Part shown: positions 576 to 51,870 of the stretch, one piece after another | How the letters are laid out: the number at the start of each line of letters is the position of its first letter | Position numbering within the stretch: position 1 is the first letter of the stretch | Assembly (NCBI GenBank): GCA_963707665.1 | Contig: CAVPQU010000020.1 | Coordinates: 7,615 to 71,614 of the forward strand | Length of the DNA stretch: 64,000 nucleotides | Direction: 5' to 3' | Origin: an uncultured beta proteobacterium | GTDB lineage: Bacteria > Pseudomonadota > Gammaproteobacteria > Burkholderiales > Burkholderiaceae_D | Position numbers and translations under genes: made by a program | The notes under the pieces: model-generated | Told to the model about the DNA's origin: nothing | The model's database searches: none | Seen by the model: only the letters and a program-made list of their open reading frames with translations

Positions 576-635
576 ATACTCCTCGTATCGAACTTAATTT
601 GCGGCTGCCAAATGGTAGTTTAGGCAATATACCCA
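576..635 (+). repeat. Bipartite ATACYCC box pair, copy a (box starts 53 bp apart)
   Basis: ATACTCC at 576-582 and ATACCCA at 629-635. AAAT sits at +35..38 and TTT at +44..46 of the unit. Intergenic, between the Rrf2 gene and the zinc-ribbon gene. Confidence 0.8.
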
Positions 636-871
636 CCCATTTATGCTCAGTCCTGCGCTGTTGGTGAGCATGCATCTTGCCAGCCGCACGTCGCCACGTA
701 CGGAGGGCGCGCAGTCGATTTTTCCTGAATCGCCCTATTCCCTGGCAGTGTGTGAGTGTGTGCAAAAAAAGCATGCTTTCGAACAACTATTGCTAGAATG
801 CCACTTTTGCAAAACCCGGCACTTCGTTGAAGTCCGGCTGTAACCGCTGGTCCACTTGGGAGACGCACCCG

Positions 872-1729
872 ATGAAGTGTTCAAGTTGCCATGCCGAGAA
901 TGACGACGGCGCCAAATTCTGCCGGGCCTGCGGCCAAGCGCTCGCGCCACCGCCAGCGGCCGAGCCGACCGTTGCCTGCCGTTATTGCCACGCGCTGAAT
1001 AAACCGGGGGCGCGCTTTTGCATCAGCTGCGGCCAGCTGATGCCGGCCCCGCTCGCGGCGACAGCTGCGCCGATGGCGGCGGAACCGTTTGCCATGGCCG
1101 ATCTAGCCGCAGGCACGGCGCAGCCGGCCGCTGGCCAGCGCCGCACCGGCCTGGCGCTGATCATCGGTATCCTGCTGCTGGCACTGATCGCGGCCGCCGC
1201 CTACTGGATGGTGGAGCGGCAGGGCGCTTCCGGCGCCGCGTCCAGCGAGGTGCAGCTGGAAACGCAGGCGAGCGACTCCGAGCCGGTCGCGGCCCAAACA
1301 TTGGAGCCCGAGGCCGGGCTTGAGCCGGAAGCACCGGCGCCCGCCGCCGGGGCCGCGCCCGAACCCGCTGCGCCGCCGCAGCCGGACGTGCCAGCGGCCG
1401 GCGCTGCTGCACCCGCCAAGGCAGCGGCCGCCGAGAAGAAAAAACCGACCAAAACCGAACGGCAGGCGCCGCGCGTCAAAAGCTACGACGAAGAAAATTA
1501 TCCGCAGCCGAGCGGCCCGGACCGCACAGCGAAAGCGCCGGCGCGGGCGGCATCTGCGGGCTGGTATGTCGAACTGAAAGCCGAACTGCAGCGCTGCGCC
1601 AGCGGCGGCAACTTCATCAGCCGCGCGGTGTGCAGCGAAAAAGCCAAATTCCGTTTTTGCGGCGCCGGCAATCATTGGGGCGAAGTGCCGGAATGCATCA
1701 AATCCAATGACGGATCAAACAGTTACTAA
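872..1729 (+). CDS. Double zinc-ribbon membrane-anchored protein with an Ala/Pro-rich linker and a Cys-rich C-terminal domain
   Basis: Two CxxC...CxxC ribbons (MKCSSCHAEN..FCRACG and CRYCHALN..FCISCG), one TM helix (GLALIIGILLLALIAAAAYW), a long A/P/E low-complexity stretch, and a C-terminal WYVELKAEL..C..VCSEKAKFRFCG..WGEVPEC. Start taken at ATG 872 inside ORF 827..1729. Confidence 0.7.
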   Translation: MKCSSCHAENDDGAKFCRACGQALAPPPAAEPTVACRYCHALNKPGARFCISCGQLMPAPLAATAAPMAAEPFAMADLAAGTAQPAAGQRRTGLALIIGILLLALIAAAAYWMVERQGASGAASSEVQLETQASDSEPVAAQTLEPEAGLEPEAPAPAAGAAPEPAAPPQPDVPAAGAAAPAKAAAAEKKKPTKTERQAPRVKSYDEENYPQPSGPDRTAKAPARAASAGWYVELKAELQRCASGGNFISRAVCSEKAKFRFCGAGNHWGEVPECIKSNDGSNSY

Positions 1730-1747
1730 CTAACGGAGACCGCAGCC

Positions 1748-2911
1748 ATGAATACAACGACATCCCTCAAGGCCGGTTCATCCTGGAGCCTGCTGCGTCT
1801 GGGCGAAGCCTGGCGCAATAAAGCCGGTCTCTGCACGCTCCTGGTGAGTTTCGTCAGCGCGGCGGTGCTGACCGCTGCCGGCACCGCCAGCGGCGTGTTC
1901 GCGATTGCCGCGCTGCTCGGCCTTTTGGCCTTCGTGATCCTGATCCTGGGTGTCAATGCGGCCGGCATCCAGTTCATGGAACAGGCCACCGGACGGCCGG
2001 TCAGCGGCGTGGCGGCGGCCTTCCTGGCCAGCCCGATGGTCGCCTTGCGGGCGCTGGGGCTGGGCATCCTGCTGTTCCTGCTGATGCTGGTGTTTACCGC
2101 CCTGGCGGCGCTGGTGCTGTTCGTTTGCAAGATTCCGGTCGCCGGCGCGCTGCTGTACGCGCTGGCGCTGCCGATACTGGTGTTTGCCGCGGCCCTGGCA
2201 TTCCTCGGCCTGTACGTGGCCAGCAGCCTGGCGGCGCCGGCGTTGTGGGAGGGTCACAGCCTGAAGAGCGCGCTGTCGCAATTGTGGGCGATCGCCACGC
2301 AACGGCCGATGGAAGCCTTCCTGAACCTGATGCTGCTGGTGCTGGCCGCGACCCTGATCAGCCTGCTGGTTTTCGGCTTCCTCGGAGCCGGCGCCAGCAT
2401 GATCGGTGGGCTGTCGGCAGCGATCCTGGGCAGCGACCTGATGTTTGGTTTTGGCGCCATGTTCAGCCGCGGTGGCGGCGGCAGTGGCTTGGTCACCGCC
2501 GCCATGTTCGGCGCCGGCATCGTGATGGCCGTTGCGGTCGCCTTGTACATGGCGATGTTCATGCTGGGACTGGCGCTGACTTATCTCAAGGTGAGCGACG
2601 GCATCGACCTCGCGGCGGCACAGCAGGCGATGGATGCGGCTCTCGCCAAAACCCGTGAACGGGCGCAACAGATGGCGGAGGAGGCCAAGCGCCGCGGCGA
2701 GGAGGCGCGTGTTGCAGCCCAGCAGCGGCTGGAGCAGATGCGTGCCCAGAATGCTGCTGCTGCTGCTGCGTCGGTGGCCGACGTTCCGCTACCCGATCCG
2801 GCCGTTTCACCGCCAGCGCTCACGGCCGCGGCGCTCACTTGCCCGGGTTGTGATGCCGGGGTGCAGGCGAGCGACGCCTTCTGCGGCAATTGCGGGCATC
2901 AGCTGGCGTAG
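1748..2911 (+). CDS. Polytopic membrane protein with a C-terminal coiled-coil and zinc ribbon
   Basis: Multiple hydrophobic helices, a charged coiled segment (RERAQQMAEEAKRRGEEARVAAQQRLEQMRAQ), and terminal CPGCDAGV..FCGNCGHQL. GGAGA RBS 7 nt upstream. Lies 18 bp after the previous gene. Confidence 0.7.
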   Translation: MNTTTSLKAGSSWSLLRLGEAWRNKAGLCTLLVSFVSAAVLTAAGTASGVFAIAALLGLLAFVILILGVNAAGIQFMEQATGRPVSGVAAAFLASPMVALRALGLGILLFLLMLVFTALAALVLFVCKIPVAGALLYALALPILVFAAALAFLGLYVASSLAAPALWEGHSLKSALSQLWAIATQRPMEAFLNLMLLVLAATLISLLVFGFLGAGASMIGGLSAAILGSDLMFGFGAMFSRGGGGSGLVTAAMFGAGIVMAVAVALYMAMFMLGLALTYLKVSDGIDLAAAQQAMDAALAKTRERAQQMAEEAKRRGEEARVAAQQRLEQMRAQNAAAAAASVADVPLPDPAVSPPALTAAALTCPGCDAGVQASDAFCGNCGHQLA

Positions 2912-7598: not shown

Positions 7599-7628
7599 GG
7601 GGTCGCGGATGAAGTCTGGATGCGAAAT

Positions 7629-7688
7629 ATACTCCAGTGGTTTATGTCGATTGGCGCGCTTGAAATGGTCGTTTTTACAATATACTCC
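7629..7688 (+). repeat. Bipartite ATACYCC box pair, copy b
   Basis: ATACTCC at 7629-7635 and ATACTCC at 7682-7688. AAATGG at +35..40. Lies between the GH15 stop and the ROK start, both on the minus strand. Confidence 0.85.
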
Positions 7689-7943
7689 GCTATTTTTTCC
7701 TTGTCGCAATCGAATGTCGAATCCGGCTTGGCGCTTGCGGGCGATTCGTCAAGACGCGGCCGCTCGCCGCCGTGGCGCAGACGTCGATCTCGCGCTACAA
7801 GCACAAAGGCATGGCAAAAAAACCGGCATACCCGTGTGCGGCCATCAATGCCTGAAGCAGGGCGAATCGGGAAAGCCGCACCTGCTTGCAACCGCCAACG
7901 GCGATAGAGTCCGGTTTGGTGTTCTTGCGGCCGGCGCCGCGCT

Positions 7944-9767
7944 TCAATACGCCTCATCCCATGCAATGCTGAGCCGGGCCGCGCATTGCAGCAAGCCGAC
8001 CATGCTGTAGGTCTGCGGGAAATTGCCCCACTGCTCGCCGGTATCCGGCACCACGTCTTCGGCCAGCAGACCCAGGTGGTTGCGGCGCGCCAAAACGCCT
8101 TCGAACAGTTGGCGCGCGCGTTCGGTGTCGCCGATCTGTGCCAGGGCCTGGATCCACCACAGCGTGCAGACCAGGAACGCGGTTTCGGGGCGGCCGAAAT
8201 CGTCTTCCTCGTCGTAGCGCAGCAGGAAATCGCCGCGCCGCAGATATTTTTCGGTGGCGCGCACGGTGCCGGCGAAGCGCGGGTCGTTGGGCGCCAGGAA
8301 GTGGATTTCCGCCATCAGCAGCAGGCTGGCGTCCAGGTGCTCGCCATGGAAGGTCGAGACGAAACTGCCGAGCTGCGGATTCCAGGCGGCGTCGCAAATT
8401 TCCTGGTGAATGCTGGCGTGCGTGCGCTTCCCATTTTTCTGCGTGCTGCGGCAGGCCCAGCTGGCGCGCGATGCTGTTCAGACGGTCGCAGGCGGCCCAG
8501 CACATGACGCTGGAAAAGGTGTGCACCCGGCGCGCGCCGCGCAATTCCCAGATGCCGGCGTCCGGCACGTTGTAGTTCAGCACCGCCTGCTCGCCCAGCC
8601 GCTCCAGATCCTCGAACAGCCGGCGGTCCGCCGGCCGCTCCAGCCGCATGTCGAAAAAGGCATGCGTGCCGGCCAGGATGGCCGAGCCGAACACATCGTT
8701 TTGCACCTGGCAATAGGCCAGGTTGCCGATGCGCACCGGCCCCATGCCGCGATAGCCGGCCAGCGCCGGCATTTCGTGCTCTTCCAGCGCTGCCTCGCGC
8801 CGAATGCCGTACACCGGCTGCAGCGGCGCATCGCGGGTGTCGGCGATCACGTTCAGGATGTATTGCAGGTAGCGCTCCATCGTACCGGTCGCGCCCAGGC
8901 GGTTCAAGGCGTTCACCACGAAGTAGGCGTCGCGCAGCCAGCAGTAGCGGTAATCCCAGTTGCGGCCGCTGTGCGGCGCTTCCGGAATCGAGGTGGTGAC
9001 GGCGGCGATCACGGCGCCGGTATCGTCGAAGGCATTCAGCTTCAGCGTGATGGCGGCGCGGATCGTCACGTCCTGCCATTCGAACGGCAGCGCCAGGTTG
9101 CGTACCCAGCGGTGCCAGTAGAGTTGCGTCTTTTCATAGAACGAGCGGCCAATCTCGGCCGGCGAGCCATCGACCGGTTCATCCGGCCCCATCAGCAGCG
9201 TGATGCTGCCGCGCAGGTAAAACGGCCGCTCGTCGCTGATCGCCGAGATCGAGGCATCGGTGGTCAGTCGCATCGCATGGGCCGAACCGACATAGGAAAT
9301 ATGGTGCGTGCCATAGTGCGTGCTGGCCGCCGTTTCGCCATAGCGGATCGCTGGGCGCGTGTGCAGCGCGATGCGCGGCCGACCGGCGCTGCAGCGAATC
9401 AGGCGTATCAGCATGGCTGGCGCGAAGGTGCGGCCGTAATGATAGAAGCGCGGCGCGAAATCGATGACTTCGATCGCGTTGCCGGCGCTATCGGCAAAGC
9501 GGCTGCACAGGATCGCGGTGTTTTTCTCGTAATGCTGATCCACCAGCAGCGCGTCGTCGAACTGCAGGCCGATCACGCCCCATCCCGGGGCCGCCCGGCC
9601 CCGGCTTCCGCCTCCGGCCGCTTGGGCTGCAGCAGCGCACAGCAGATCGGGTCGCTGTCGAAGTACGGATAACACCACCAGACGATGTTGGCGTTGCGGT
9701 CGATCAGCGCGCTGGTGCGGGAATTGCCGATCAGGCCAAGGTCAAGCGTTTGATCCGGAGTCTGCAT
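7944..9767 (-). pseudogene. Glycoside hydrolase family 15 (glucoamylase/trehalase-like), split over three frames
   Basis: N-terminus LDLGLIGNSRTSALID..IVWWCYPYFDSDP is in ORF 9573..9767. The core NWDYRYCWLRDAYF... is in ORF 7954..9678. The C-terminus ...LLRYDEEDDFGRPETAFLVCTLWWIQAL... is in ORF 7944..8315. Frame switches fall near 9595 and 8415. Confidence 0.8.
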
Positions 9768-10072
9768 GTCATTCCTTTAAAAGCGCCGGTGGGCGAAGCA
9801 GGCGCGACCTCAATGTGATCGCCAAACTGGCAAATAAATCCGCCCGGGCGCCAGCCACGCGCGCGACGCCGCGCCGCGCCGGGTCGGTAAAATGGCGTTT
9901 TGCCGAGCCGGCAAGCTGTTGCCAGGCGCCATCCTGCACGTGCCGGATCGGGCTCTGTCGTAGTTGAGCTGTTGCAAGCCATTCCATGTGGTTGCCGCAT
10001 GCTTTTGGCGGCAACGCATGCATTTCCGCCTTTGCGGAGGCGACAGCGCCCTCATTCGCTACTATTTGCCTC

Positions 10073-11236
10073 ATGAACATTGAAGCCCGTCGCATCGCGC
10101 ATCTGGACATGGATGCCTTCTATGCATCCGTCGAACTTCTGCGCTATCCAGAATTACGTGGCTTGCCGGTTGTCATCGGTGGTCGTTCAATGCACCGGCC
10201 CACGGTTCAAGCCGATGGCAGTCGACACTTCTCAAGGCTGCGTGATTACTCCGGGCGGGGCGTCGTGACGACATCGACTTACGAAGCGCGCGCCCTTGGC
10301 GTTTTCTCTGCCATGGGGGTCATGAAGGCGGCGCAGCTGGCGCCCGACGCCATTCTCCTGCCGGCGGATTTCGACGCCTATCGCCATTATTCAAAGCTGT
10401 TCAAAAGTGCAGCCGCCAGCATCGCGCCGCATATCGAAGACCGCGGCATCGATGAGATTTATCTCGATCTGAGTGAGCAAGCGGACGAGACGGGTTTGCT
10501 TGCCTTGCGCATCAAACAAGCGGTGCGAGCGGCCACCGGTCTTTCCTGCTCGATCGGCGTGGCGCCCAATAAGCTGCTGGCAAAAATCTGCTCGGACCTG
10601 GAAAAGCCCGATGGAATGACCGTTTTGAACCATGCCGATATACCAAGTCGGATCTGGCCGCTGGCTGTTCGGAAAATCAATGGGATCGGCCCCAAAGCGA
10701 ACCAGAAACTGGCTACGCTTGGTATCCGGACAGTGGGGGAACTCGCCCGAGCAGAGCCCGGTTTACTCCAGGCTCATTTCGGTCGAAGCTATGCCAGCTG
10801 GCTTCACAACGCCGCTCAGGGCATCGATGAGCGGCCGGTAATAACCAGTTCGGAGCCGAAGTCGATCAGTCGCGAGACGACCTTTGAGCGGGACCTTCAC
10901 GCACGTCATGACCGTGAAACCTTGTCTGGCATCTTTACCGCATTATGTACGCGAGTGGCAGAAGACCTGCGCCGCAAGGGATATGTTGGCCGCACGATCG
11001 GCATCAAGCTGCGCTACGCAGATTTCCGCACCCTGACGCGCGACGTCACGCTACCTGCTCCTACCGCCGATGCAGCAAGCATCCGTCGGGCTGCCGGCGA
11101 GTGTCTGCGCCGGGTTCCTCTGGAGCAGAGACTGAGGCTGCTCGGTGTGCGGGCCAGCGCTCTGTCGCCAACCGCGGCGTCGCATGGTGACGATCATTTA
11201 TCGCAAGGAGAGTTGCTCTTCACAGAATCTTGGTGA
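10073..11236 (+). CDS. dinB: DNA polymerase IV
   Basis: MNIEARRIAHLDMDAFYASVELLRYPELRGLPVVIGG is a Y-family polymerase signature. Confidence 0.9.
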   Translation: MNIEARRIAHLDMDAFYASVELLRYPELRGLPVVIGGRSMHRPTVQADGSRHFSRLRDYSGRGVVTTSTYEARALGVFSAMGVMKAAQLAPDAILLPADFDAYRHYSKLFKSAAASIAPHIEDRGIDEIYLDLSEQADETGLLALRIKQAVRAATGLSCSIGVAPNKLLAKICSDLEKPDGMTVLNHADIPSRIWPLAVRKINGIGPKANQKLATLGIRTVGELARAEPGLLQAHFGRSYASWLHNAAQGIDERPVITSSEPKSISRETTFERDLHARHDRETLSGIFTALCTRVAEDLRRKGYVGRTIGIKLRYADFRTLTRDVTLPAPTADAASIRRAAGECLRRVPLEQRLRLLGVRASALSPTAASHGDDHLSQGELLFTESW

Positions 11237-11486
11237 CGGCCAGTGGCGGCACCAACTGCGTGCCGTGCTGCTTGTCTTCCTCAAACGCCCTCCACCAGCA
11301 CTGGAGAATAAAAAAATCCGCGGCTTGCATGGAGATCGAATCAGGCCCTTACGCTAGCATCCGCACCGATGACTCACGCTGCCATTGTCGTGTCTTGGCG
11401 GCAGCGATAACAAGGCGGTCGGCAAGCAAGGCGATCGGCAAGCACGGCGACGGCGTGTAGAATGGCCCCTTTTTTGCGCGCTCGCC

Positions 11487-13460: not shown

Positions 13461-13616
13461 GCATCTTCTCCACCAGGCGGTCCGCGCGGCATCCACCCTG
13501 TGTGGCGGACCGATACGAGCCGCAACTGAGCAATGGCGCCGGGCTTGCAAGATCACAGGCAGCCGACACCACACGCTATCCATGGCGGTTTGCCTCGCAC
13601 CGCCTAGCCGCGTCGG

Positions 13617-13676
13617 ATACTCGGCATGCCATGGGTCAATATCGGATACAAACGGGACGTTTTTCAAACATACTCC
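13617..13676 (+). repeat. Bipartite ATACYCC box pair, copy c
   Basis: ATACTCG at 13617-13623 and ATACTCC at 13670-13676. T-run at +44..48. Lies in the divergent intergenic region between the SRPBCC and DUF3311 genes. Confidence 0.75.
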
Positions 13677-14011
13677 ACGTCTTCCAGAAGTGCCAGCGAT
13701 GCAGTGACAATCTTTGCGAGATGCTTGAGGCGATGGCTGTCGTACGCCGATCATTCGGGCTCGGTCGCAGCAGATTGTCGAACAGGTTTGTGCACTCTCA
13801 AAAGCGATTTAATCCAGCAAAAAACACCATCCCAAATCGGCGGCTCGATGCTGGCCGGTCCGCAAACAATACGCAGCGCGCTTGATTTACATTCAAGAAA
13901 ACCGGATTGAATTTGCGCCTGCCATAGTCCAACGCAAACAGGTGTCGTCGTCGTTTATGTCATGTCGCCGCTGCCATCTGGCTGCTGTTTTGACATGGCA
14001 AGGAGATTGGC

Positions 14012-14191
14012 ATGTGGACCTTGCTGTTGCTGCCGTTCATCGGCTTGTTGTGGCTGCCGTTCTATAACCACGAGTTGCCGTCCCTGTTTGGCTTTCCCTT
14101 CTTCTACTGGTACCAGCTGGCGTGGGTGCCGATCACTTCGCTGCTGATCTGGATCGTATATCGCCACGGCAAACGTCGGGGAGTCGAATGA
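14012..14191 (+). CDS. DUF3311 small membrane protein (partner of the sodium:solute symporter)
   Basis: 59-aa ORF, below the track cutoff: MWTLLLLPFIGLLWLPFYNHELPSLFGFPFFYWYQLAWVPITSLLIWIVYRHGKRRGVE. Its stop overlaps the symporter start (ATGA). Confidence 0.7.
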   Translation: MWTLLLLPFIGLLWLPFYNHELPSLFGFPFFYWYQLAWVPITSLLIWIVYRHGKRRGVE

Positions 14192-15704
14192 TGACCACTC
14201 AAATCAACTGGATTGCGCTGGGCGTCTTCGTCTTCTTCTTCGCGCTGGTGACGGTGATGGGCTTTGCCGCCTCGCGCTGGCAACGGGGCGGCACCGCACA
14301 AGGGCGCGCACCTGGACGAATGGGGCCTGGGCGGCCGCAATTTCGGCACCTGGATCACCTGGTTCCTGGTCGGCGGCGATTTCTATACCGCGTACACCGT
14401 GATCGCGGTGCCGGCGCTGGTCTACGCGGTCGGCGCCTATGGCTTCTTCGCGTTGCCGTACACGATCATCGTCTATCCGATCGTGTTCATGATCATGCCG
14501 AAACTGTGGCATGCGGCGCATCGGGCCGGGCACGTGACGGCCGGCGACGTGGTGTATGGCCGCTATGGTTCGCGCACCGCTGGAATTCGCGGTCGCGCTG
14601 ACCGGCGTGTTCGCGACCATGCCGTACATCGCGCTGCAGCTGGTCGGCATGGAAGTGGTGATCAAGGCGCTCGGCCTGACGGGCGAGCTGCCGCTGGCGG
14701 CGGCGTTCGTGATCCTGGCGCTGTACACCTATTCGGCCGGGCTGCGGGCGCCGGCGCTGATCGCCTTCGTCAAGGACCTGATGATCTACATCGTGGTGCT
14801 GGTGGCGGTGGTGCTGGTGCCGCTGAAGCTGGGCGGCTATGGCGCGGTGTTCGCATCGGCGAATGAAGCGTTCGCCGCCAAGGGCGGCGCCACCGGGCTC
14901 TACCTGCAGCCGCAGCAGATCCTGCCGTTCGCCACCCTGGCGCTCGGTTCGGCACTGGCCGCGTTCATGTATCCGCATACGCTGACCGGCATCTTTGCCG
15001 CCAAAAGCGCCGATACGATCCGCAAGAACGCGGTGTTCCTGCCGGCCTACACCGTGCTGCTGGGCTTGATCGCGCTGCTCGGCTTCATGGGCTATGCCGC
15101 CAAGGTCGACATCAAGAACAACAACGACGTGGTGCCGGCGCTGTTCAATGCGCTGTTCCCGAGCTGGTTCAGCGGCTTCGCGTTTGCCGCGATCGCGATC
15201 GGCGCGCTGGTGCCGGCGGCGGTCATGTCGATCGGCGCTTCCAACCTGTTTACGCGCAACTTCTGGAAGCCTTACGTGAATCCGGCAATCACCCCGGCCG
15301 GCGAACAGAAGGTGGCCAAGATCGTCTCGCTGGTGGTCAAGCTCGGCGCCCTGGTCTTCATCCTGTTCTTGCCGACTCAGTACGCCATCAACCTGCAATT
15401 GCTCGGCGGCGTGTGGATCCTGCAAACCTTCCCGGCGGTGGTGTTCGGCCTGTTCTTCCACTGGTTCCGGGCCCCGGCCTTGCTGGCCGGCTGGGCCGTC
15501 GGCATGGCCAGCGGCAGCTGGCTGGCCTTTACCGATGGCATCAAACCGGTGCACACGCTAGTGCTCGGCGGCGCCAGCTATACGATGTATACCGGCTTGC
15601 TGGCACTGGTGCTGAACGTCGCAGTGGCCGTGGTGCTGCAACTGGTGCTGGGCGAGCGCGGGACGCAAAGGCCAGTGCCGCTGGCCGACGAAGCGGTGCG
15701 CTGA
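14188..15704 (+). pseudogene. Sodium:solute symporter (SSS) family transporter, split over three frames
   Basis: MMTTQINWIALGVFVFFFALVT.. is in frame 1. ..HLDEWGLGGRNFGTWITWFLVGGDFYTAYT.. is in frame 2. ..LEFAVALTGVFATMPYIALQLVGM... through to the end is in frame 3. Switches fall near 14303 and 14577. Confidence 0.8.
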
Positions 15705-15981
15705 GGCCCTGCCGCGGCCGTACCGGCTGCGCTTTCTTTCGTAGAGCGCCAGGCGTCTCTTTCCCGGATGCCTGACGCAGCGGCAGCCAGTCCGATGGCC
15801 TCGATGCAGCGCGGCAAAAGCAGATGCTAGCTGCCTGCGCCGGGAACACAATCCGCCCGCTTCAAATCCAAATCAAAAGTTGCTTGTTGTATTTCACCGA
15901 TGTTTGACACGAATGCCGCCGTGCTGTGCACGAATGCCGGGATTAAACATAGCCGGGCGGCCGATTCGAATAGGAGCCGTG

Positions 15982-16701
<720 letters not shown>

Positions 16702-16705
<4 letters not shown>

Positions 16706-17688
16706 ATCCGTTCGCCTACCGCCGCCCGGCGAATGTCGACGAGGCGCTGCGCCTGGCGCAGGAACCGGGCGCGATGTTCATCGGCGGCGGCACCAATCTG
16801 CTCGACCTCGTCAAGGGCGGCGTCGCCGTGCCGCAAAGCCTGATCGACGTCAGCCGGCTGCCGCTGGCCGAGATCGTCGAACTGCCCGACGGCGGCGTGC
16901 GCATCGGTGCCCTGGCGCGCAACAGCGATACCGCCAACCATACGCTGATCCGCACGCGCTATCCCTTGCTGTCGCAGGCCTTGCTGGCGGGCGCCTCGCC
17001 GCAGCTGCGCAACATGGCCACGGTCGGCGGCAATCTGCTGCAACGCACGCGCTGCTATTATTTTTACGATACGGGATTCGACCGCTGCAACAAGCGCCTG
17101 CCCGGTTCCGGCTGCGCCGCGCGCGACGGCTATAACCGCATCCATGCGGTGCTCGGCGCCAGCGACGCCTGCATCGCCACCAATCCGTCCGACATGAATG
17201 TGGCGCTGGCGGCGCTGGGTGCCGTGGTGCGCGTGCGCGGCGCCGGCGGCGAGCGGGCGATCGCGATCGGCGACTTCCACCGGCTGCCGGGCGATGCGCC
17301 GCAGCGCGATACCACCCTGGAGCGCGGCGAGCTGATTACGGCCGTCGATCTGCCGCGCTCGCCGTTTGCCGAGCATGCGTATTACCTGAAGGTGCGCGAT
17401 CGCGCCAGCTATGCCTTCGCGCTGGTATCGGTGGCGGCGGCGCTCGATCTGCGTGACGGCGTGGTGCGCAATGCCGCGCTGGCGCTGGGCGGCGTCGCGC
17501 ACAAGCCGTGGCGCCTGCCGCAGGCCGAAGCCGCACTGGTGGGGCAGCCGCTGGCGCCGCCGGCGATGCAGGCCGCCGCCGACGCGCTGCTGCAGGGCGC
17601 GCGGCCTTACCAGCACAACGGCTTCAAGGTGAACCTGGCGCGGCGCGCCATCGTACGTGCGCTCGGCATGGCGGGAGGAATCGCATGA
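16702..17688 (+). CDS. PaoB-like FAD-binding subunit (xanthine dehydrogenase family)
   Basis: [38 protein letters not shown] is a CO dehydrogenase flavoprotein-type N-terminus. Confidence 0.8.
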
Positions 17689-19892
17689 AAAGCGTCGGCG
17701 CGCCGCTGGACCGCATCGACGGCCCCTTGAAGGTCTGCGGCGCCGCGCGCTACAGCGCCGAATTCGCGCTGCCGCGCATGGCGCATGCGGTGCTGGTGCA
17801 AAGCACGGTGCCGAACGGACGGATCGCGCGGCTCGACACCGGGGCGGCGGAACGCTCGCCCGGCGTCGTCGCCGTGCTCACGCACAAGAACGCCATGCGG
17901 CTGCCGCAAGGCGGCAAGGGGGCGGAGCAGCCGCCGCAGGGGCGCGTGTTGTCGCTGCTGCAGGACGACCAGGTGCATTACAACGGCCAGCCGGTGGCCG
18001 TGGTGGTGGCCGATACGCTGGAGCAGGCGCTGGGCGCTGCGGCCATGGTCCGCGTCGAGTATCAGCGCACTGCCGCCGCGCTCGATTTCGACGCCGCCAA
18101 GCCGCGCGCCTATTCGCCGGGCAAGGTGCTGGACATGGATGCCGATTCGCGCCATGGCGATCTGCAGGCCGGCCTGGCGCAGGCGGCGGTGCGCAAGACG
18201 CTGACCTATACGACGCCGATGCAGCATCATAATCCGATGGAGCCGCACGCCACGCTCGCCGCCTGGGACGGCAGCCGGCTGACCTTGCACGATTCGACGC
18301 AGCATGTGGCCGGCGTGCAAAAAACACTCGCCGAAATCTTCGGGATTCCCCAGGACCACGTGCGCGTGCTCTGCCCTTATGTGGGCGGCGGCTTCGGCGG
18401 CAAGGGCTCGGCCTGGTCGCATGTGGCGCTGGCCGCGCTGGCGGCGCGCCAGTGCGGCCAGCCGGTGCGGCTGGTGCTGCAGCGGCCGCAGCTGTTCGGC
18501 CCGGTGGGTGGCCGGCCGCGCACCGAACAGACGGTGACGCTCGGCTGCACGCCCGACGGTCGCTTCACGGCGGTGGAGCACAGGGTCATATCCAATACCT
18601 CGGTCATCGAGGACTGGACCGAATCGTCGGCGATGGTCACGCGCATGCTGTATGCCTGCCCGAATATCGCCACCTCGCATCGGCTGGTCAAGCTGAATGT
18701 CGGCACGCCGACTTTCCAGCGCGCGCCGGGCGAGGCCACCGGCAGTTTCGCGCTGGAGAGCGCGCTGGACGAACTCGCCTATGAAACCGGCATCGACCCG
18801 ATTGCGCTGCGCCTGCGCAATTACGCCGAACGCGACCCCGAGCGCGACCTGCCGTTTTCCAGCAAGGCGCTGCGCGAGTGTTATCGCGTCGGCGCCGAGC
18901 GCTTCGGCTGGCAGCGGCGCACTCCGCAGCCGCGCTCGATGCAGCAGGGGCAATGGCTGATCGGCATGGGCATGGCCAGCGCGACCCGCCCGGCCAAGCG
19001 CAGCCCGGCAGCGGCGCGCGTGCGCTTGCTGGCGGACGGCCAGGCGCTGGTGCAGTCGAGCACCGAGGACCTGGGCACCGGCACCTACACGGTCATGACG
19101 CAGATCGCCGCCGACGCGCTCGGCTATGCGCCCGCACAAATCCGCTTCGAGCTGGGCGATACCGATCTGCCGGAAGCGCCGATCGCCGCCGGCTCGATGA
19201 CGGTGGAAAGCGTGGGCGCGGCGATCCACGAGGCCTGCCTGGACGTGCGCCGGCGCCTGATCGAACTGGCGCGCGCCGATGCGCGCTCGCCGCTGGCGGG
19301 CGCGGCCGCCGACGGCATCGTGATCGACCACGGCTGGCTGCGGCTGGCATCGGACCGCGAGCGCGGCGAGCCGGCCGCCGCGCTGCTCGCGCGCCACGGC
19401 GGTGCGCTCGAAGCGCGCGTCGACAGCAAGCCCGGCGGCGAAGTCGGGCAATACTCGATGCACACCTTCGGCGCGGTCTTTGCCGAAGTGCACGTCGACC
19501 GCGATCTCGGCGTGATCCGCGTGCCGCGCGTGGTCGGCGCCTACGGCGTCGGCCAACTGATCAACGCCAAAACCGCGCACAGCCAGCTGATGGGCGGCAT
19601 CGTATGGGGCATCAGCCTGGCGCTGTTCGAGGAATCCGTGCTCGATCCGCACACCGGGCGTTTCGTCAACGCCAACCTGGCGGAATACCACGTGCCGGTG
19701 AACGCCGATATCGGCACCATCGACATCACGGTGGTGCCCGAACAGGATGCGCAGGTGAACGCGCTCGGCGCCAAGGGCATCGGCGAAGTGTCCACCACCG
19801 GCGTCGCCGCCGCCATCGCGAATGCGGTGTATCACGCCACCGGACGCCGCGTGCGCGACCTGCCGATCACGCTCGACAAGCTCCTGGCTTGA
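17685..19892 (+). CDS. PaoC-like molybdopterin-binding subunit (xanthine dehydrogenase family)
   Basis: [27 protein letters not shown]..., about 735 aa. ATGA overlap with the FAD subunit. Confidence 0.85.
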
Positions 19893-20063
19893 GCCGGCAG
19901 CATCAGCCGGGACTGCGCGATTGACGTCGAGCCGGTGTCTGGCATAGGCTCACGAAGCGCTTCCCGCCTTTGTGTCGTCGCGCTGTTGCGCGACTGCCTG
20001 CCAGTCCGCGAGCCGATGTGCCATGGTAGCGTAGCGCCAAATAATATTATTCAGGAGACCGCC

Positions 20064-20591
20064 ATGAAAACCCTCGTCGATCAGCTTGCCCAATACGCCG
20101 CCTACCATCGGGACCGGCGCAACATCGCCACCCACCTGGTCGGGATTCCGATGATCGTGTTTGCGATCACGGTGCTGCTGTCGCGCCCGGCCTTCGAACT
20201 GGGCGGCATCGTGCTGACGCCGGCGACGCTGGCGGTGGTGGTGACCGTGCTCTATTACTTCCGGCTGGATCTGCGCTACGGCGCCGTGATGGCGATTCTG
20301 ATGGGGCTGGCCTTGTGGGGCGCACAGGCGGTGGCGGCCGCGCCGACCGCGACCTGGCTTTACGCCGGCATCGGCTTGTTCGTGCTCGGCTGGATCCTGC
20401 AATTCATCGGCCACGCCTGGGAAGGCAAGAAGCCGGCCTTCGTCGACGACCTGATCGGCCTGATCATCGGGCCGCTGTTCGTGGTGGCCGAAGTCGGCTT
20501 CCTGCTCGGCCTCGGCAACGCGGTGCGCGCGGAGATCGAGCGCCGCGTGGGGCCGACGCACGGCCAACGCACGGCGTCGATGGGCGGGTAA
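20064..20591 (+). CDS. DUF962 (Mpo1-like) membrane protein
   Basis: MKTLVDQLAQYAAYHRDRRNIATHLVGIPMIVFA...QFIGHAWEGKKPAFVDDL is characteristic of the family. Confidence 0.7.
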   Translation: MKTLVDQLAQYAAYHRDRRNIATHLVGIPMIVFAITVLLSRPAFELGGIVLTPATLAVVVTVLYYFRLDLRYGAVMAILMGLALWGAQAVAAAPTATWLYAGIGLFVLGWILQFIGHAWEGKKPAFVDDLIGLIIGPLFVVAEVGFLLGLGNAVRAEIERRVGPTHGQRTASMGG

Positions 20592-20654
20592 TAAACGCAC
20601 TGTTGAACGGCGCCCGAACTCACGCCGCACCTGCCGCCTGAGCTCGGGCGCATA

Positions 20655-20714
20655 TACTCCTGATACTTGCACCTAATTCCAGACTTAAAATAACAGATTT
20701 GGCAACATACCCCA
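20655..20714 (+). repeat. Bipartite ATACYCC box pair, copy d
   Basis: ATACTCC at 20655-20661 and ATACCCC at 20708-20714. AAAT at +35..38. Lies between the DUF962 gene and fadH. Confidence 0.85.
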
Positions 20715-20829
20715 TGTCTAAGGGCGTAGCCCATCGCATGCGGCAGCCGTTCCCCCAGCATCCCTTCTGGCACGCCGGTCACAAGGCATTTTAGAGTATT
20801 GCCCAAGGACATTTTCAGCCACTCGGTGA

Positions 20830-22943
<2,114 letters not shown>

Positions 22944-23125
22944 CCGGGTGAGTTGTTGCTGATAGGACAGGTTTTGCCAGGCAAATCGGCCGGGAGTGGC
23001 CGCGCGATGGTTTCGGTGCAAGTTTGAAAATGCCGAACAGGACGTGAAATTGGCCCAAGCTCCGCGCAAGGTGCGGCGCGCTGGCGGTGTTACCATCGCC
23101 CCACCCTTGTCTCGAGTCCCTCGCC

Positions 23126-24254: not shown

Positions 24255-24269
24255 AGCGCGCCGGCCGGC

Positions 24270-25040: not shown

Positions 25041-25089
25041 AGCGTCGGCACCAAAGCCCACGGCGCGTGGTCGAATCCCAAACGCCAGT

Positions 25090-26565: not shown

Positions 26566-26579
26566 CGTGCGCGCTGCCG

Positions 26580-28038: not shown

Positions 28039-28111
28039 GCGCGCACAAGCCACGAGAGCGGTACGAACAACAGGCCTGCCCCCTTGAGCGGGGCGGCTTG
28101 GCCTCAGATGG

Positions 28112-28171
28112 ATACTCCATGAGTGCACATCTGTTTTCGCTGAGATAAACTGCGTCTTACCCACATACTCT
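28112..28171 (+). repeat. Bipartite ATACYCC box pair, copy h
   Basis: ATACTCC at 28112-28118 and ATACTCT at 28165-28171. Lies between the convergent ompA-like and cytochrome c genes. An extra lone ATACTCA sits at 28246. Confidence 0.75.
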
Positions 28172-28442
28172 GCCATTGTTGGTTATGCGAAGCATGCTGT
28201 GGAGCAAATTCCTGTCGTGCATGCCGAGCCCTATGGCACCCCTGCATACTCAGCGCGATATGCCGATGCAACTGTTAAACGCGACAGAGGTATGTCGAGG
28301 CTGGCTGCTACCAAATCCGTTCGCTATTCACTACTGATCTGCTGGTCGTTCCGGTGGCAGTAGGGCGCAACCCGGTATCGTGCGCCGGCTTGCCTTTGCA
28401 CGGTCGACGAGGGTCGGCGACTAGACACGTCACGTATCAAGG

Positions 28443-28534: not shown

Positions 28535-29407
28535 TTATTTCACGGCTGCGATCATATACGCGACAGCGGCCTTGACGTCGTCATCGGATGCTTGCGCACC
28601 GCCCTTGGGCGGCATCATTCCAGTCTTGCCCTGGAAGCCCTTGATCGCATGTTCGTCCAGGGTTGCGACGCCCTGTTTGAGCCGATCTGCCCAGGCTGCC
28701 TTGTCGCCGAATTTCGGTGCGCCGGCGATGCCAGCGGTATGGCACGCCATGCACACGCTGTCATACAATTTTTTGCCGACATCGCTGGCTGCCGGTGCGG
28801 CCGCTGCGACGGGCGCGGCGGCAGTCGGTGCTGCCGCAGCCGGAGCCGCCGGCGCTGCTGCGGGCGCCTCGGCAGCCGGTGCGGCTGGTTTGGCGGCCGG
28901 GACTTCCGGTTCCTTGAATTTGCCACCGGACTGGTTCGCCATGTAGACCACCGCGCGCGCGACTTCCACATCATCCAGATCGGGATTGCCGCCCTTGGCC
29001 GGCATCGCGTTCAGGCCGTGCAAGGCATAGCCCAGCACGGTGTCGTAGCCGGCCGCGAGCCGCGCCGACCAGGCAGCGGCGTCGCCCAGCTTCGGTGCGC
29101 CGGCGGCGCCGGTGCCGTGACAGGCGACACAGGTCGTCTTGTATACCTGTTCGCCGGTTTGCAGCTGTTTCGGGGCATTCACGTCTTTCAAGGTGAAGCC
29201 CACGTCGGCGACCGGCTGAATGCGTGCCTCGATGGCCGCTGGAGTCTGCGCTTCCGAGCCGGCGCCGACCTTGGGTCCGTTCGATGCATATTCGACCAGC
29301 AGGGCGATACAGATGATCGGCACCAGAAACCCGGCGATGACCGCGGCAATCAGCTGTTTCGGAGTTCTGATGCCGGACTGGTGTTCTTCTTTGTGTGCGT
29401 CACTCAT
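28535..29407 (-). CDS. Membrane-anchored dihaem c-type cytochrome (cytochrome c5 family)
   Basis: N-terminal TM anchor, two CxxCH sites (CVACH, CMACH) each followed by ...MP(A/P)KGG, separated by an Ala/Pro-rich linker. Confidence 0.85.
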   Translation of the reverse strand: MSDAHKEEHQSGIRTPKQLIAAVIAGFLVPIICIALLVEYASNGPKVGAGSEAQTPAAIEARIQPVADVGFTLKDVNAPKQLQTGEQVYKTTCVACHGTGAAGAPKLGDAAAWSARLAAGYDTVLGYALHGLNAMPAKGGNPDLDDVEVARAVVYMANQSGGKFKEPEVPAAKPAAPAAEAPAAAPAAPAAAAPTAAAPVAAAAPAASDVGKKLYDSVCMACHTAGIAGAPKFGDKAAWADRLKQGVATLDEHAIKGFQGKTGMMPPKGGAQASDDDVKAAVAYMIAAVK

Positions 29408-29604: not shown

Positions 29605-29680
29605 GCGGCTGTAGCTCAGTGGATAGAGTATTGGCCTCCGAAGCCAAGGGTCGTGGGTTCGATCCCCGCCAGCCGCACCA
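29605..29680 (+). tRNA. tRNA-Arg (anticodon CCG)
   Basis: GCGGCTG/CAGCCGC acceptor stem, AGCTCAGTGGATAGAGT D arm, anticodon loop CT-CCG-AA, GGTTCGATCCC T arm, and encoded CCA. Confidence 0.9.
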
Positions 29681-32764: not shown

Positions 32765-33829
32765 ATGAGCAAGGAGCACCAGGGCGCGATGCAGTCGTTG
32801 CTCAATCATCTCGTTGAAATTACCGGTCATCGCGACCATAACCTGCTCGATATCTCGGTCATTTCGGCCTTGCAGGAGCTGGTCGGTGCGAGGCAGGCGC
32901 GCACCCTCGAGATTTTCAAGTTCCGCGACCAGCTGTATATCCGGCCGCGCGTCTGGCTGCAGGACGGCAAGATCGTCACCAGCGAGGAAATGCTGGAGGC
33001 CGAGCAGCCGGGCGACCCGCTGACCGAGTATCCCTTGCTGCTGTCAGCCATCGAACAGCGCTTGCACAGTGTCGAACAGCCGGCAGACGATGGCTCGCAC
33101 CTGTTATGGCTGCCGCTCTGGCTCAACGACAAGATCAGCGGCTGCCTGGAGATCCGTAGCGCCGCGCCGCTGTCCGATGAGGCACGCAGCATGATGGAAG
33201 GCATTCTGCGCGTCTATCGCAATTTCCAGAATTTGCTGGATTACAGTGAACGCGATTCGCTGACCGGACTGCTGAACCGCAAGACCTTCGACGAGAATTT
33301 TTCGCGCATGGTGTCGTGTTCGGCGCCGAAGCAGCCGGTGCCGGCACGTGGCCCGGATCGGCGCCTGCACGTCGAACACAAGGAACAATGGCTGGCGGTC
33401 ATCGACATCGATCACTTCAAGCGCGTCAACGACCGTTTCGGCCACCTGTACGGCGACGAAGTGCTGCTGCTGATCGCCAACCTGCTGCGTAGTTCGTTTC
33501 GCACCCAGGACCGCATCTTCCGCTTTGGCGGTGAGGAATTCGTGGTGCTGCTGCGCTCCACCACGCTGGCCGATGCGCGCAATATCTTCAGCCGCTTTCG
33601 CGCCAACGTCGAGAACTACCCGTTTCCGCAAGTCGGCCGGGTCACGGTCAGCATCGGCTTCGCCAACATTTCGCTGCAAACCCCGGTAGTGATCCTGGGG
33701 CACGCCGATCAGGCGCTCTACTATGCCAAGATGCACGGCCGCAACCAGGTCTGCCATTACGACGAACTGGTCGCCAACGGCGAACTGCAATCCCAGGTTT
33801 CGAACCACAACGACGTTGAATTTTTTTGA
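32765..33829 (+). CDS. Diguanylate cyclase (GGDEF) with an N-terminal sensor domain (GAF-like?)
   Basis: RDSLTGLLNRKTF...AVIDIDHFKRVNDRFGHLYGDEVL...FRFGGEEFVVLL. Confidence 0.85.
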   Translation: MSKEHQGAMQSLLNHLVEITGHRDHNLLDISVISALQELVGARQARTLEIFKFRDQLYIRPRVWLQDGKIVTSEEMLEAEQPGDPLTEYPLLLSAIEQRLHSVEQPADDGSHLLWLPLWLNDKISGCLEIRSAAPLSDEARSMMEGILRVYRNFQNLLDYSERDSLTGLLNRKTFDENFSRMVSCSAPKQPVPARGPDRRLHVEHKEQWLAVIDIDHFKRVNDRFGHLYGDEVLLLIANLLRSSFRTQDRIFRFGGEEFVVLLRSTTLADARNIFSRFRANVENYPFPQVGRVTVSIGFANISLQTPVVILGHADQALYYAKMHGRNQVCHYDELVANGELQSQVSNHNDVEFF

Positions 33830-33915
33830 GCGTCGCCCCAGTATTTCTCCCCAGTGCCTCATGCCAGAGTAGCGACGGCACTTGCCGCGCATTCGATCAG
33901 CTGTGTGACAAGCGA

Positions 33916-33975
33916 ATACTCCATGCATGGAGGGCTACTGTCTCAGGTAAAATATGCATCTGTGCAGCATACCCC
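33916..33975 (+). repeat. Bipartite ATACYCC box pair, copy g
   Basis: ATACTCC at 33916-33922 and ATACCCC at 33969-33975. AAAT at +35..38. Lies between the GGDEF gene and rarD. Confidence 0.85.
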
Positions 33976-34222
33976 TATAAAACCCTTTTTTGCAAAGGAT
34001 GACACAGGTATCGCAGTGACTTGCCGGCGCGGCTTTCGGACGGGCGCGGAATTGGGCTTGCAGCGCCATGCATCAGCAATAGTCTCGCTGGCTCCAAAGC
34101 CAATTACTGCGATAATCGCCGACCTCATAAAAAATTTGTCCCGGCTTCAGGGCTGTCACAAACAATCGCCACCACACTGCCTGGCTGCCAGCCGGCAGCC
34201 ACTCTTTCACGATCGAACCGTC

Positions 34223-35113: not shown

Positions 35114-35122
35114 GGCCCGGCG

Positions 35123-43626: not shown

Positions 43627-43650
43627 GCGCCGCTACCCTTTGCAGGGCAT

Positions 43651-43710
43651 ATACTCCACTTATGGGCGGCCAATTTCGAGCGATAAATCTGGGTTTAAAC
43701 GACATACCCA
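43651..43710 (+). repeat. Bipartite ATACYCC box pair, copy e
   Basis: ATACTCC at 43651-43657 and ATACCCA at 43704-43710. AAAT at +35..38 and TTT at +44..46. Lies in the 132-bp gap between convergent genes. Confidence 0.85.
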
Positions 43711-43758
43711 TGGTTTAACCCTGAGAGAGCGCGTGGCGGCCGGCCCCAAGCCGGTCTT

Positions 43759-50304: not shown

Positions 50305-50380
50305 GATGCGCATGGACATCATTTCATCTGGTAGTAGGTCGTGTGCTGTAGCTGTTCAACGAATATAAAGGAGACATATC

Positions 50381-51704
50381 TTGAAACTGATCAAACAACT
50401 CACGCTGTCCGCCGTGGCCGCTTGCGCGCTGCTGGGAGCGGTCGGCCAGGCGCTGGCGCAAGCCAACGAGCAATTCGTCGCGCTGCCCAGCTACCGGGTC
50501 GGCCCGTACGCCGCCAACGGTACCGCCTGGTACGGCGGTTTCATTGATTACATGAACTACGTCAACCTGAAGGACGGTGGCATCAACGGCGTCAAGCTGG
50601 CCTGGGAAGAATGCGAAACCGAGTACAACAACGCCAAGGGTGTCGAGTGCTATGAACGCCTGAAAGCCAAGGATCCGGTGGCGCATGGCACCGCCTTCAA
50701 CGTGATGTCGACCGGCATTGCCTATGCGCTTGATCGACAAGTCGGTGCAGGACAAGGTGCCGCTGATGATGGCCGGCTATGGCCGTACCGACGCGGTCGA
50801 CGGCTCGGTATTCCCATGGGCCTTCCCGCTGGTGACCACCTATCAGATGCAGATTTCCGCGATCGTCAAATACCTGGCATCGAAGAACAAGGATTCGCTG
50901 GCCGGCAAGAAAATCGTCTATCTGTATCACGACTCGGCCTATGGCAAGGAACCGATCATCGCGCTGGAAGCCGAAGCGACGCTGCGCAAATTCAGCGTGG
51001 TGCAGATTCCGGTCGCGCACCCGGGCAACGAGCAGGGCGCGCAATGGCTGAAGATCCGCCAGGAAAAGCCGGATTACGTGATTTTCTGGGGTTGGGGTGT
51101 GATGAATCCGACCGCGCTGAAGGCGGCGCAAAAAGTCGGCTATCCGCGTGACCAGATCATCGGTTCCTGGTGGGCCGGTTCGGAAGAAGACACGGTACCG
51201 GCCGGTCCCGCCGCCAAGGGTTACATGAGCGCCACCTGGAACGTCGCCGGCACCACGCCGCCGGCGATCGCCGACATCGAGAAAGTGGTGTACGGCGCCG
51301 GCAAGGGCAACCTGCAGGACAAGAGCAAGGTCGGCTCGGCGCTCTACAACCGCGGCGTTTCGATCGCGATCATCACGGTGGAAGCGATCCGCAATGCGCA
51401 GGCCAAGTTCGGCAAGGGCAAGGTCATCACCGGCGAGCAGATGCGCTGGGCGCTGGAAAACCTCGACATGAACAATGCCCGCCTGAAGCAGCTCGGCGCC
51501 ACCGGCCTGCTGCCTGAAATCAAGACTTCCTGCCAGAACCACGAAGGCTCGGGCAAGGTCAAGATCCAGCAATGGGATGGCAGCAAGTGGGTCATCATTT
51601 CCGACTGGATGGAAGGCAACAAGGCGCTGATTCACCCGCTGTTCCAGGCCAACGCCGCCAAGTATGCGAAAGAAAAGGGCATTACCCCGGGCTGCCTGCA
51701 GTAA
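50381..51704 (+). pseudogene. ABC transporter substrate-binding protein (LivK-type), one frame disruption
   Basis: TTG start with AAGGAGA RBS and a signal peptide. The reading frame changes at about 50732, from ...STGIAYAL to IDKSVQDKVPLMMAGYGR.... An extra g after CTT would explain it. Confidence 0.8.
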
Positions 51705-51809
51705 TTGCTGCAACCTCGCCGTCCGTGGTGCGCGCCACGGACGGTTTTTCGGTGGCGACTGATCCCCCGCAGCCGCCACCGAAAAACCGCCATGGATAGT
51801 TTCATCGAT

Positions 51810-51870
51810 GGAGTATATGGATAAACCGGCCATTTCATGTCCGGTATCAGCCAGTTGTTATCAGGAGTAT
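51810..51870 (-). repeat. Bipartite ATACYCC box pair, copy f (minus orientation, 54-bp spacing)
   Basis: GGAGTAT at 51810-51816 and 51864-51870 on the plus strand, which is ATACTCC twice on the minus strand. The box at 51864 doubles as the GGAG Shine-Dalgarno of the next gene (ATG 51875). Confidence 0.75.

Follow-up and report, generated by a model that had tools for sequence, protein, structure and literature searches.

A recurrent intergenic element of two direct-repeat boxes 53 bp apart in soil Burkholderiaceae genomes

Eight paired-box sites in the window

We analysed a 64,000-nucleotide stretch of DNA from an uncultured beta proteobacterium (assembly GCA_963707665.1, contig CAVPQU010000020.1, positions 7,615 to 71,614 of the forward strand), called the window below, which carries eight copies of an intergenic element built from two directly repeated ATACYC boxes (Y, C or T). 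The window is ordinary Burkholderiales chromosomal DNA, with ROK, GH15 (glycoside hydrolase family 15), solute symporter, cytochrome c, EamA, CMD and ABC (ATP-binding cassette) transporter genes and a tRNA-Arg gene. A phage or plasmid origin of the window was considered and rejected, as no phage match was found and plasmid matches were scattered and at gene level.

A search of the window for ATACYC-N{47,48}-ATACYC returned eight matches, compared with 0.00 expected from 100 dinucleotide-preserving shuffles, establishing that all eight two-box sites proposed in a first-pass annotation of this DNA exist (Table 1). Opening the gap to 30–60 bp recovered the identical eight pairs and no further spacing, so that the spacing histogram within the window has a lone peak, and 14 of the 24 plus-strand ATACYC hexamers in the window belong to the seven 53-bp pairs. 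Similarly, a profile hidden Markov model built from ~82 family members detected precisely eight copies, with no degenerate or decayed extras.

Table 1. Copies of the two-box element (c1–c8) and the RNA gene detected in the window
Feature	Span	Strand	Box 1	Box 2	Box spacing	nhmmer E	Context
c1	573..645	+	576-582 ATACTCC	629-635 ATACCCA	53 bp	2e-8	after + gene 63-488, before + zinc-ribbon gene starting ~827-872
c2	7625..7695	+	7629-7635	7682-7688 ATACTCC	53 bp	2e-10	between start of − ROK-family gene (6615-7598/7709) and end of − GH15 gene (7944-)
c3	13613..13686	+	13617-13623 ATACTCG	13670-13676	53 bp	1e-9	divergent intergenic region
c4	20650..20721	+	20654-20660	20707-20713 ATACCCC	53 bp	profile match	
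c5	28111..28177	+	28112-28118	28165-28171 ATACTCT	53 bp	2e-4 (weakest of the eight)	convergent ends: + gene ending 28038, − cytochrome c gene 28535-29407
c6	33915..33981	+	33916-33922	33969-33975 ATACCCC	53 bp	7e-7	86 bp past stop of + gene 32765-33829; upstream of + EamA gene
c7	43647..43718	+	43651-43657	43704-43710 ATACCCA	53 bp	2e-10	132-bp convergent spacer: + gene end 43626, − CMD gene end 43759
c8	51806..51874	−	51870-51864	51816-51810	54 bp	profile match	between intrinsic terminator 51718-51745 and ATG of ABC ATPase gene at 51875
tRNA-Arg (anticodon CCG)	29605-29680						only RNA gene detected in window

The annotated box coordinates hold for seven sites, while c4 lies at 20654/20707 instead of 20655/20708, and the gene contexts that had been listed (upstream of genes, within an operon, between convergent gene ends) are correct. 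Two finer details needed adjustment: the cAT described before box 1 agrees with the family consensus elsewhere, yet is found in 3/8 window copies, and the AAAT reported at offsets +35 to +38 in 6/8 copies occurs there in five, with one further copy shifted by 1.

Consecutive copies are separated by 7053, 5988, 7037, 7458, 5804, 9735 and 8160 bp (mean ~7.3 kb), an evenness with a coefficient of variation of 0.18 (P ~1-3e-4 vs random placement) that was spotted post hoc. The last 12 kb of the window hold no copy, and in blocks of the related genome CAVPMM01 pairs of copies lie just 2.3-4.5 kb apart, which contradicts an even ~7-kb spacing as a strict rule.

Copy c8 follows a strong terminator (12-bp stem and TTTTT) placed between two genes of an ABC-transporter cluster, and its box 1, read on the plus strand, offers GGAG 7 nt before the ATG at 51875; only one or two other copies truly abut a gene start in this way.

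Anatomy, placement and conservation of the element

The family set comprises ~82-85 distinct copies, most of them ascertained by a pattern that fixes four interior positions, and as a control for this bias the profile was re-derived from 17 copies found via the two hexamers alone. Counting from the A of box 1 as offset 0, the consensus runs from box 1 (c-A-Y-ATACTCC-c, −3 to 7) through c-c-T-A-T (19-23), one free position, Y-C-G-G-g-C-R-T (25-32), r-A-A-A-T-G-G (33-39), three free positions and T-T-T-T-T-t (43-48) to box 2 (c-a-A-Y-ATACTCC-c, 49-60), two free positions and a final WWWW (63-67). In the two-hexamer-only set, C26 is present in 17/17 copies, G27 in 15/17, A−2 in 13/17 and C6 in 15/17; TAT (21-23), AAATGG (34-39) and the T-run (43-48) are likewise conserved, and the information outside the two hexamers amounts to roughly 28 bits (n=17). 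Because these interior blocks, including the near-invariant central CG, are conserved in copies that were not selected for them, the spacer is not free sequence, contrary to what the first-pass annotation had concluded from the eight window copies.

The distance between the boxes is also constrained. Among copies not selected for spacing, ten have 53 bp and one each has 52, 54 and 55 bp. Only 14 ATACTCC boxes occur unpaired in 557 kb, fewer than chance by a hand estimate, so that the box pair is the unit. The boxes themselves are asymmetric and arranged as direct repeats, and the element measures ~75-80 bp overall.

Over this length, AT-rich and GC-rich positions alternate; the Fourier spectrum is highest at 10.6 bp, and the AT content peaks at about offsets 0, 11, 22, 35, 45, 54 and 65. 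Since 53 bp divided by 10.6 gives 5.0 turns, the two boxes lie on the same helical face, and the CG, midway between the box starts (26.5) and thus 2.5 turns from each, lies on the opposite one. The ~10.5-bp A/T phasing and same-face geometry noticed in the window thus hold family-wide, and of the geometric, protein-binding constraint that had been proposed, the fixed geometry and same-face phasing stand, whereas the accompanying "free sequence" does not.

We found no indication that the element folds. For either strand, RNAalifold gave a consensus energy of 0.0 kcal/mol, and no pair of columns covaries; mutual information and sliding minimum-free-energy profiles for structured or small RNA were negative, and nothing in the neighbourhood is less foldable than the element itself, the lowest folding energy lying outside it. 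An ATAC-loop-GTAT hairpin at each box was rejected, with 3.59 vs 3.57 and 3.45 vs 3.42 paired bases relative to permuted controls. Searching the window against Rfam at the gathering threshold returned tRNA-Arg as the sole match; at E<=10 there was none inside any copy, the nearest being a chance miRNA-precursor match on the minus strand (51735-51795), ~10 bp short of c8.

The element lacks terminal inverted repeats and ends in direct repeats instead, its left terminus reading CATATACTCCC and its right one, once reverse-complemented, GGGAGTATGTTG. A target-site duplication, sought at all boundaries with k=3-6, was seen at best in 7/82 copies, within the permutation range. These folding and terminus results agree with the earlier description of the element as neither palindromic, like the repetitive extragenic palindromic (REP) sequences, nor built like a miniature inverted-repeat transposable element (MITE). 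Additionally, the IHF consensus WATCAANNNNTTR occurs exactly in 0/82 copies and with one mismatch in 6/82, compared with 7.0 in shuffled sequence, with no positional preference.

Further candidate identities were tried and rejected. An intrinsic terminator does not fit, as the T-run at offsets 43-48 has no preceding hairpin and no terminator-like site overlaps the copies; a leader peptide starting from the TTG after box 2 on the reverse strand meets stop codons at once in several copies. Partial resemblances, namely of AGTATGTTG in reverse box 2 to the E. coli Ter core, of CGATAAAT in c7 to an H-NS nucleation motif, of GTCGTTTT-CA to Tn402 end repeats, and of the element to the consensus sequences of sigma-32, sigma-28 and sigma-54, each fail in spacing or key bases when set against the family consensus. 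Literature searches on the box sequences and on intergenic repeats without palindromes gave no relevant result. Judged from the defining features of REP, MITE, promoter, terminator, Rfam RNA, IHF element and uptake signal, the element, previously undescribed, belongs to no known family.

To place the copies relative to genes, we used a home-made codon-usage caller spot-checked against Pfam. All 79 classified copies are intergenic. Reading the flanking genes in the element's own orientation, 32 copies lie in co-directional spacers with both genes opposite and 18 with both genes in the same direction, 25 lie between convergent gene ends (same/opposite) and 4 between divergent promoters (opposite/same). 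As background, the intergenic regions in these loci were counted by number, which gave 72% co-directional, 15% convergent and 13% divergent, and by length, which gave 13% convergent and 17% divergent. Convergent regions, with 32% of copies vs 13-15% of the background, are therefore about twofold enriched, and divergent regions, with 5% vs 13-17%, about threefold depleted. The 32:18 ratio in co-directional spacers does not amount to a significant orientation bias. The intergenic placement, convergent enrichment and unbiased orientation argue for action at the level of DNA.

Some convergent spacers are only 120-150 bp long and mostly occupied by the element, and in the window co-directional gene clusters have a copy at either end, namely c3 and c4 for 14012-20591 and c4 and c5 for 20890-28038. 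GC-rich hairpins beside the element are just modestly more frequent on sides that face a gene 3' end than on sides that do not (35% vs 19% and 18% vs 9%), as ordinary terminators would give, and these hairpins lie outside the element. The placement is REP-like, or like that of bacterial interspersed mosaic elements (BIMEs), in that the copies are many, sit at transcription-unit ends and occur in either orientation, whereas the build differs; in enterobacteria, terminator-adjacent, transporter-cluster and gene-end sites are typical locations of REP sequences.

Two side observations concern the gene map itself. Sites with a hairpin followed by a T-run numbered 20, 23 and 17 in positions 1-60000 of the window, vs 17.7, 19.0 and 19.4 in shuffled sequence, and since such sites are no commoner than in shuffled sequence, canonical intrinsic terminators seem rare in the source genome. 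Next to c2, the stretch 7944-11486 is mostly uncalled by the codon-usage caller, and 7944-8315 matches only the C-terminal part of Glyco_hydro_15 in Pfam, which suggests that the real GH15 gene is the 574-aa minus-strand open reading frame (ORF) at 7954-9678; a plus-strand ORF, 9986-11236, also lies within this stretch.

Orthologous loci in related genomes demonstrate that single copies are retained while their interiors drift. Between c4 and its counterpart in CAVPMM01 (locus L108), 10/11 positions of box 1 and 9/10 of box 2 are identical, compared with 21/42 of the interior, and the spacing is 53 bp in both. Copy c8 and its counterpart in JBAUJK01 (L098) share 11/11 positions of box 1 and 8/10 of box 2, with spacings of 54 and 53 bp. 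For c7, a metagenome search with the 254-aa protein encoded upstream returned 80 loci, and the element is present in the three closest alone (L155, L156 and L157; 78-79% protein identity), where it stands directly 3' of the stop codon of the orthologous gene even with a different downstream gene. In these three loci, box 1 matches c7 at 9-10/11 positions, box 2 at 6-7/10 and the interior at 17-19/42, the spacing is 53 bp throughout and the ATACTCC and ATACYC cores are intact in 3/3; the other 77, more distant loci showed no element.

In all three sets of orthologues, the box cores show full conservation at a distance of 53 bp (54 bp in c8), and the interior, compared for c4 and c7, is 40-50% identical, so that boxes and spacing are kept and the spacer drifts, a positive outcome of the test proposed in the first-pass annotation. 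This pattern clearly points to purifying selection on the boxes and spacing of single copies, but not on most of the interior. Beside the c4 orthologue, a non-coding block at 20790-20870 (TTTAGAGTATTGCCCAAGGACATTTTCAGCC…GGTGATACCCTGCTTTTTTCC), located between c4 and the Oxidored_FMN gene at 20890, is near-identical in L108, in contrast to the drifted remainder of the spacer, and that gene probably has its real operator or promoter here.

We scanned one genome per species across 185,579 species with a stricter pattern and obtained at least 100 loci. Among the matches listed, 74/100 loci come from four soil metagenome-assembled genomes (MAGs), CAVPMM01 (labelled 'uncultured beta proteobacterium') and JBAUJK01, JBATWJ01 and DATJCV01 (each labelled 'Burkholderiaceae bacterium'); Ottowia beijingensis and Curvibacter soli contribute two loci each and Undibacterium arcticum one, and the other 21 are chance-like singletons in unrelated phyla. 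The relatives found are thus MAGs with a Burkholderiaceae or beta proteobacterium label, where the first-pass annotation had guessed at Oxalobacteraceae. By a hand estimate, the chance expectation for a 4-Mb genome of 65% GC is ~1e-4, so that two loci in one genome are not attributable to chance. Judged by the matches listed, the family is lineage-specific: it is carried by the four MAGs of soil Burkholderiaceae, and Ottowia and Curvibacter hold a few copies. A similar scan of viral contigs gave 54 matches, all of them singletons at chance level, with E>0.5 against the family profile. Aligned stretches of the window are 92-94% identical to CAVPMM01 and 84-87% identical to JBAUJK01, and the window is thus from a species related to both.

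The interior consensus (offsets 7-52) differs from genome to genome, reading …CGGgCgT.AAATGGt..TTTTTTCAAC in CAVPMM01, …CTATGCCGGGCGtcaAcaGg… in JBAUJK01 and JBATWJ01 and …TTtCGG.cAtAAAATGG… in DATJCV01, and leave-one-out classification by this flavour was right for 26/34, 16/20 and 14/21 copies. The orthologous copies c4 and L108 each match the flavour of their own genome. Such genome-specific flavours suggest either co-evolution with a binding partner or homogenisation among copies.

In O. beijingensis, two copies lie 186 bp apart (L150, 998-1293) within a 110-nt repeat unit (83% identical) that also holds REP-like GC-rich palindromes such as GCGGGCTTGCCCGC, placing the element in a mosaic with REP sequences. 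In CAVPMM01, the copy at 162-220 of L125 (contig 16) equals that at 4537-4595 of L149 (contig 1), including at least 30 bp of flank on each side, which reflects either a duplicated region or assembly redundancy; apart from this region, no near-identical copies were found within one genome.

Possible roles and rival explanations

The same-face boxes, opposite-face centre, helical phasing, lack of structure, free orientation, gene-end placement and signs of selection together suggest that the element acts as duplex DNA bound at both boxes, with the DNA between them bent or wrapped. We tentatively favour, with somewhat less than even confidence, a reading of the element as an extragenic, same-face bipartite platform on which a putative protein docks or wraps DNA, and which was spread by a copy mechanism. 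A sequence-specific protein, as a dimer or higher oligomer, would contact both boxes at once, and the anisotropically bendable DNA between them would be sharply bent or wrapped; in a U-bent duplex, direct repeats would be related by a two-fold axis, so that a symmetric dimer could hold both. The outcome would be a fixed nucleoprotein particle at gene ends, which might serve as a topological or transcriptional boundary or as a dock for a nucleoid protein or topoisomerase. The role is thus likely to be architectural, of the kind ascribed to REP/BIME sequences, strong gyrase sites and GapR-bound regions. As to origin, the information content of the element is too high for repeated emergence by point mutation, making a copy mechanism most likely, and copy-and-paste spread may have been followed by purifying selection that keeps the boxes and spacing of individual copies.

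Several points weigh against this docking platform. Protein binding, bending, curvature and biological role are all inferred from sequence. True A- or T-tracts make up just two of the A/T patches, the remaining ones being TA-rich, which suggests flexibility rather than intrinsic curvature. The conservation of the boxes could stem from molecular drive, as in uptake sequences, and not from a benefit to the host. Also, the genome-specific flavours, the gain or loss of c3 and the low copy numbers in the distant genera Ottowia and Curvibacter fit a mobile element equally well.

A more specific version, in which the copies position an architectural protein that wraps or U-bends ~80 bp at transcription-unit ends every few kilobases (~7.3 kb and unusually even in the window), forming lineage-specific boundary particles that insulate supercoil domains or transcription, seems to us unlikely.

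Similarly improbable is a selfish, non-autonomous MITE-like element, whose boxes would be sites of a putative transposase or recombinase and which would bring no host benefit. An element this rich in information multiplies only by copying, each genome has its own interior consensus, copies are few in distant genera, and the intergenic, 3'-biased, orientation-free distribution is the pattern expected of tolerated insertions. Additionally, c3 is present in the window and absent at the orthologous place in the 92-94%-identical genome (CAVPMM01, L108), where the spacer aligns too poorly to fix breakpoints. The copies, however, show no terminal inverted repeats, no target duplication at the tested boundaries and no subterminal hairpins, and there are no young, near-identical copies within a genome bar the one duplicated region. 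A candidate 'master' element flanked by two copies (L055) encloses an ORF that by eye resembles a 5'-nucleotidase and not a transposase (one case, no family search run). Dead neutral copies would also not be expected to keep their cores and exact spacing at orthologous loci with a randomised interior between them.

A promoter or tiny transcription unit is a distinctly doubtful alternative. Here, the YATACT of box 2 (or box 1) would be a sigma-70 or sigma-S −10 element and the A/T patches would be UP-like; TATACT and CATACT do resemble a −10, GTGAAA is found 15 bp before box 2, UP subsites would coincide with A/T patches, a W-rich patch follows 6-10 bp after each box, and a co-oriented gene start lies downstream of 22/79 copies. 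The base that would serve as T−7 (offset 57 in box 2) is critical for −10 function, yet it is C in 4/8 window and 10/81 family copies and flips between T and C in orthologues. Likewise, −12 is mostly C, GTGAAA as the best −35-like block is weak and has a 15-bp spacer instead of 16-18 bp, a consensus promoter scan matches just sporadic copies, and 25/79 copies lie between convergent gene ends, with only the 22/79 before a co-oriented start. The repetition of box 2 by box 1 exactly 53 bp upstream is left unexplained. The variant raised in the first-pass annotation, with box 1 as the −10 of a tiny transcription unit, is weakened in the same way by the C at T−7 and the convergent copies, and also because nothing upstream of box 1 is conserved.

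We give slightly less weight again to an RNA signal in 3' untranslated regions, in which the boxes read in reverse as GGGAGUAU (a Shine-Dalgarno (SD) sequence or a CsrA-like GGA), with AUG or GUG after box 1, and forward as a C-rich, anti-SD-like ACUCCC. CAT, CAC or CAG precedes box 1 in most copies, giving ATG, GTG or CTG on the other strand, in 72% of copies the gene next to the box-2 side is on the opposite strand and turns its 3' end towards the element, and the c8 box supplies the SD sequence of the next gene. A start-codon reading of reverse box 1 as GGGAGTAT-ATG/GTG was nevertheless rejected, as the ORFs behind it span 2-55 codons, are variable and have low third-position GC content. 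The 32:18 bias is not significant, 28% of copies could not be transcribed in the required sense from a neighbouring gene, and no structure, covariation or Rfam match was found. An RNA signal is further disfavoured because an unvarying 53-nt distance and a 10.6-bp phasing belong to duplex DNA and not to unstructured RNA.

Finally, it is highly improbable that the element is a DNA uptake signal, kept up through biased uptake and recombination. Such a signal would account for a conserved core with AT-rich patches in helical phase behind it, as in the uptake signal sequences (USS) of Pasteurellaceae, and for an orientation-independent element common to related species that persists at orthologous sites. 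The element, however, is far rarer than such signals (~1 per 7 kb in the window), lies strictly between genes, requires a conserved centre and a second core at an exact distance from the first, and shows no enrichment of solo cores.

Comparison with known systems

Few parts of bacterial genomes are as poorly understood as dispersed extragenic repeats such as REP sequences, BIMEs and MITEs, nearly all known families of which are palindromic or have inverted termini. If a protein does clamp these sites, they would represent a new, sequence-specific mode of organising the bacterial chromosome at gene ends; the carriers are mostly uncultured bacteria, and the 80-bp element together with its cultured low-copy carriers, Ottowia and Curvibacter, would provide an experimental handle. 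If the element is mobile instead, its transposition mechanism would have to use direct-repeat ends.

In promoter-like features, the element shares with sigma-70 promoters and their UP elements the YATACT motif and, if transcription is taken to start after box 2, A/T patches at about −42 and −52 and a W-rich patch where the start would be expected; it differs in its variable −7 base, the lack of a proper −35, the second identical box at about −64, the one third of copies in convergent positions and the depletion from divergent promoter regions. The USS of Pasteurellaceae combine a short core with AT-rich patches phased by one helical turn, and the element resembles them in its invariant core, phased AT patches, orientation independence and restriction to a clade. 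A USS, in contrast, has a single 9-bp core, occurs ~1 per kb and is frequent inside genes, whereas the element has two cores 53 bp apart and a central CGG and is found only between genes, ~1 per 7 kb.

Like MITEs such as Correia, ERIC and RUP, the element is short, AT-richer than the genome, intergenic and fixed in length, its interior is less conserved, and its presence may differ between relatives. Terminal inverted repeats, target duplications and usually long hairpins are features of MITEs, none of which is seen in the element. A further parallel is offered by architectural sites at gene 3' ends: strong gyrase sites, GapR regions and IHF-containing RIP/RIB BIMEs are located where transcription-driven supercoils accumulate and show the ~10.5-bp AT/GC periodicity of wrapped DNA. 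The element shares the supercoil-prone location and the periodicity, while those sites are without sequence-specific direct-repeat boxes and the enterobacterial IHF consensus is absent from the element.

In placement, the element resembles the REP/BIME sequences (including REPINs) of Enterobacteria and Pseudomonas, which are likewise extragenic, multicopy and located at gene 3' ends, between convergent genes or within operons in either orientation, and which have been reported to bind gyrase, IHF and Pol I, a role similar to that proposed for the element. Some copies of the element also persist at orthologous sites, and in Ottowia it adjoins REP-like palindromes. REP sequences, however, are imperfect palindromes with hairpins, usually in inverted pairs and linked to RAYT transposases, whereas the present element has direct-repeat boxes and no stem. 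What sets it apart is a distinct grammar, in which direct-repeat boxes are held at a distance of five helical turns, the conserved centre lies on the opposite face and AT and GC alternate in a nucleosome-like phasing of 10.6 bp.

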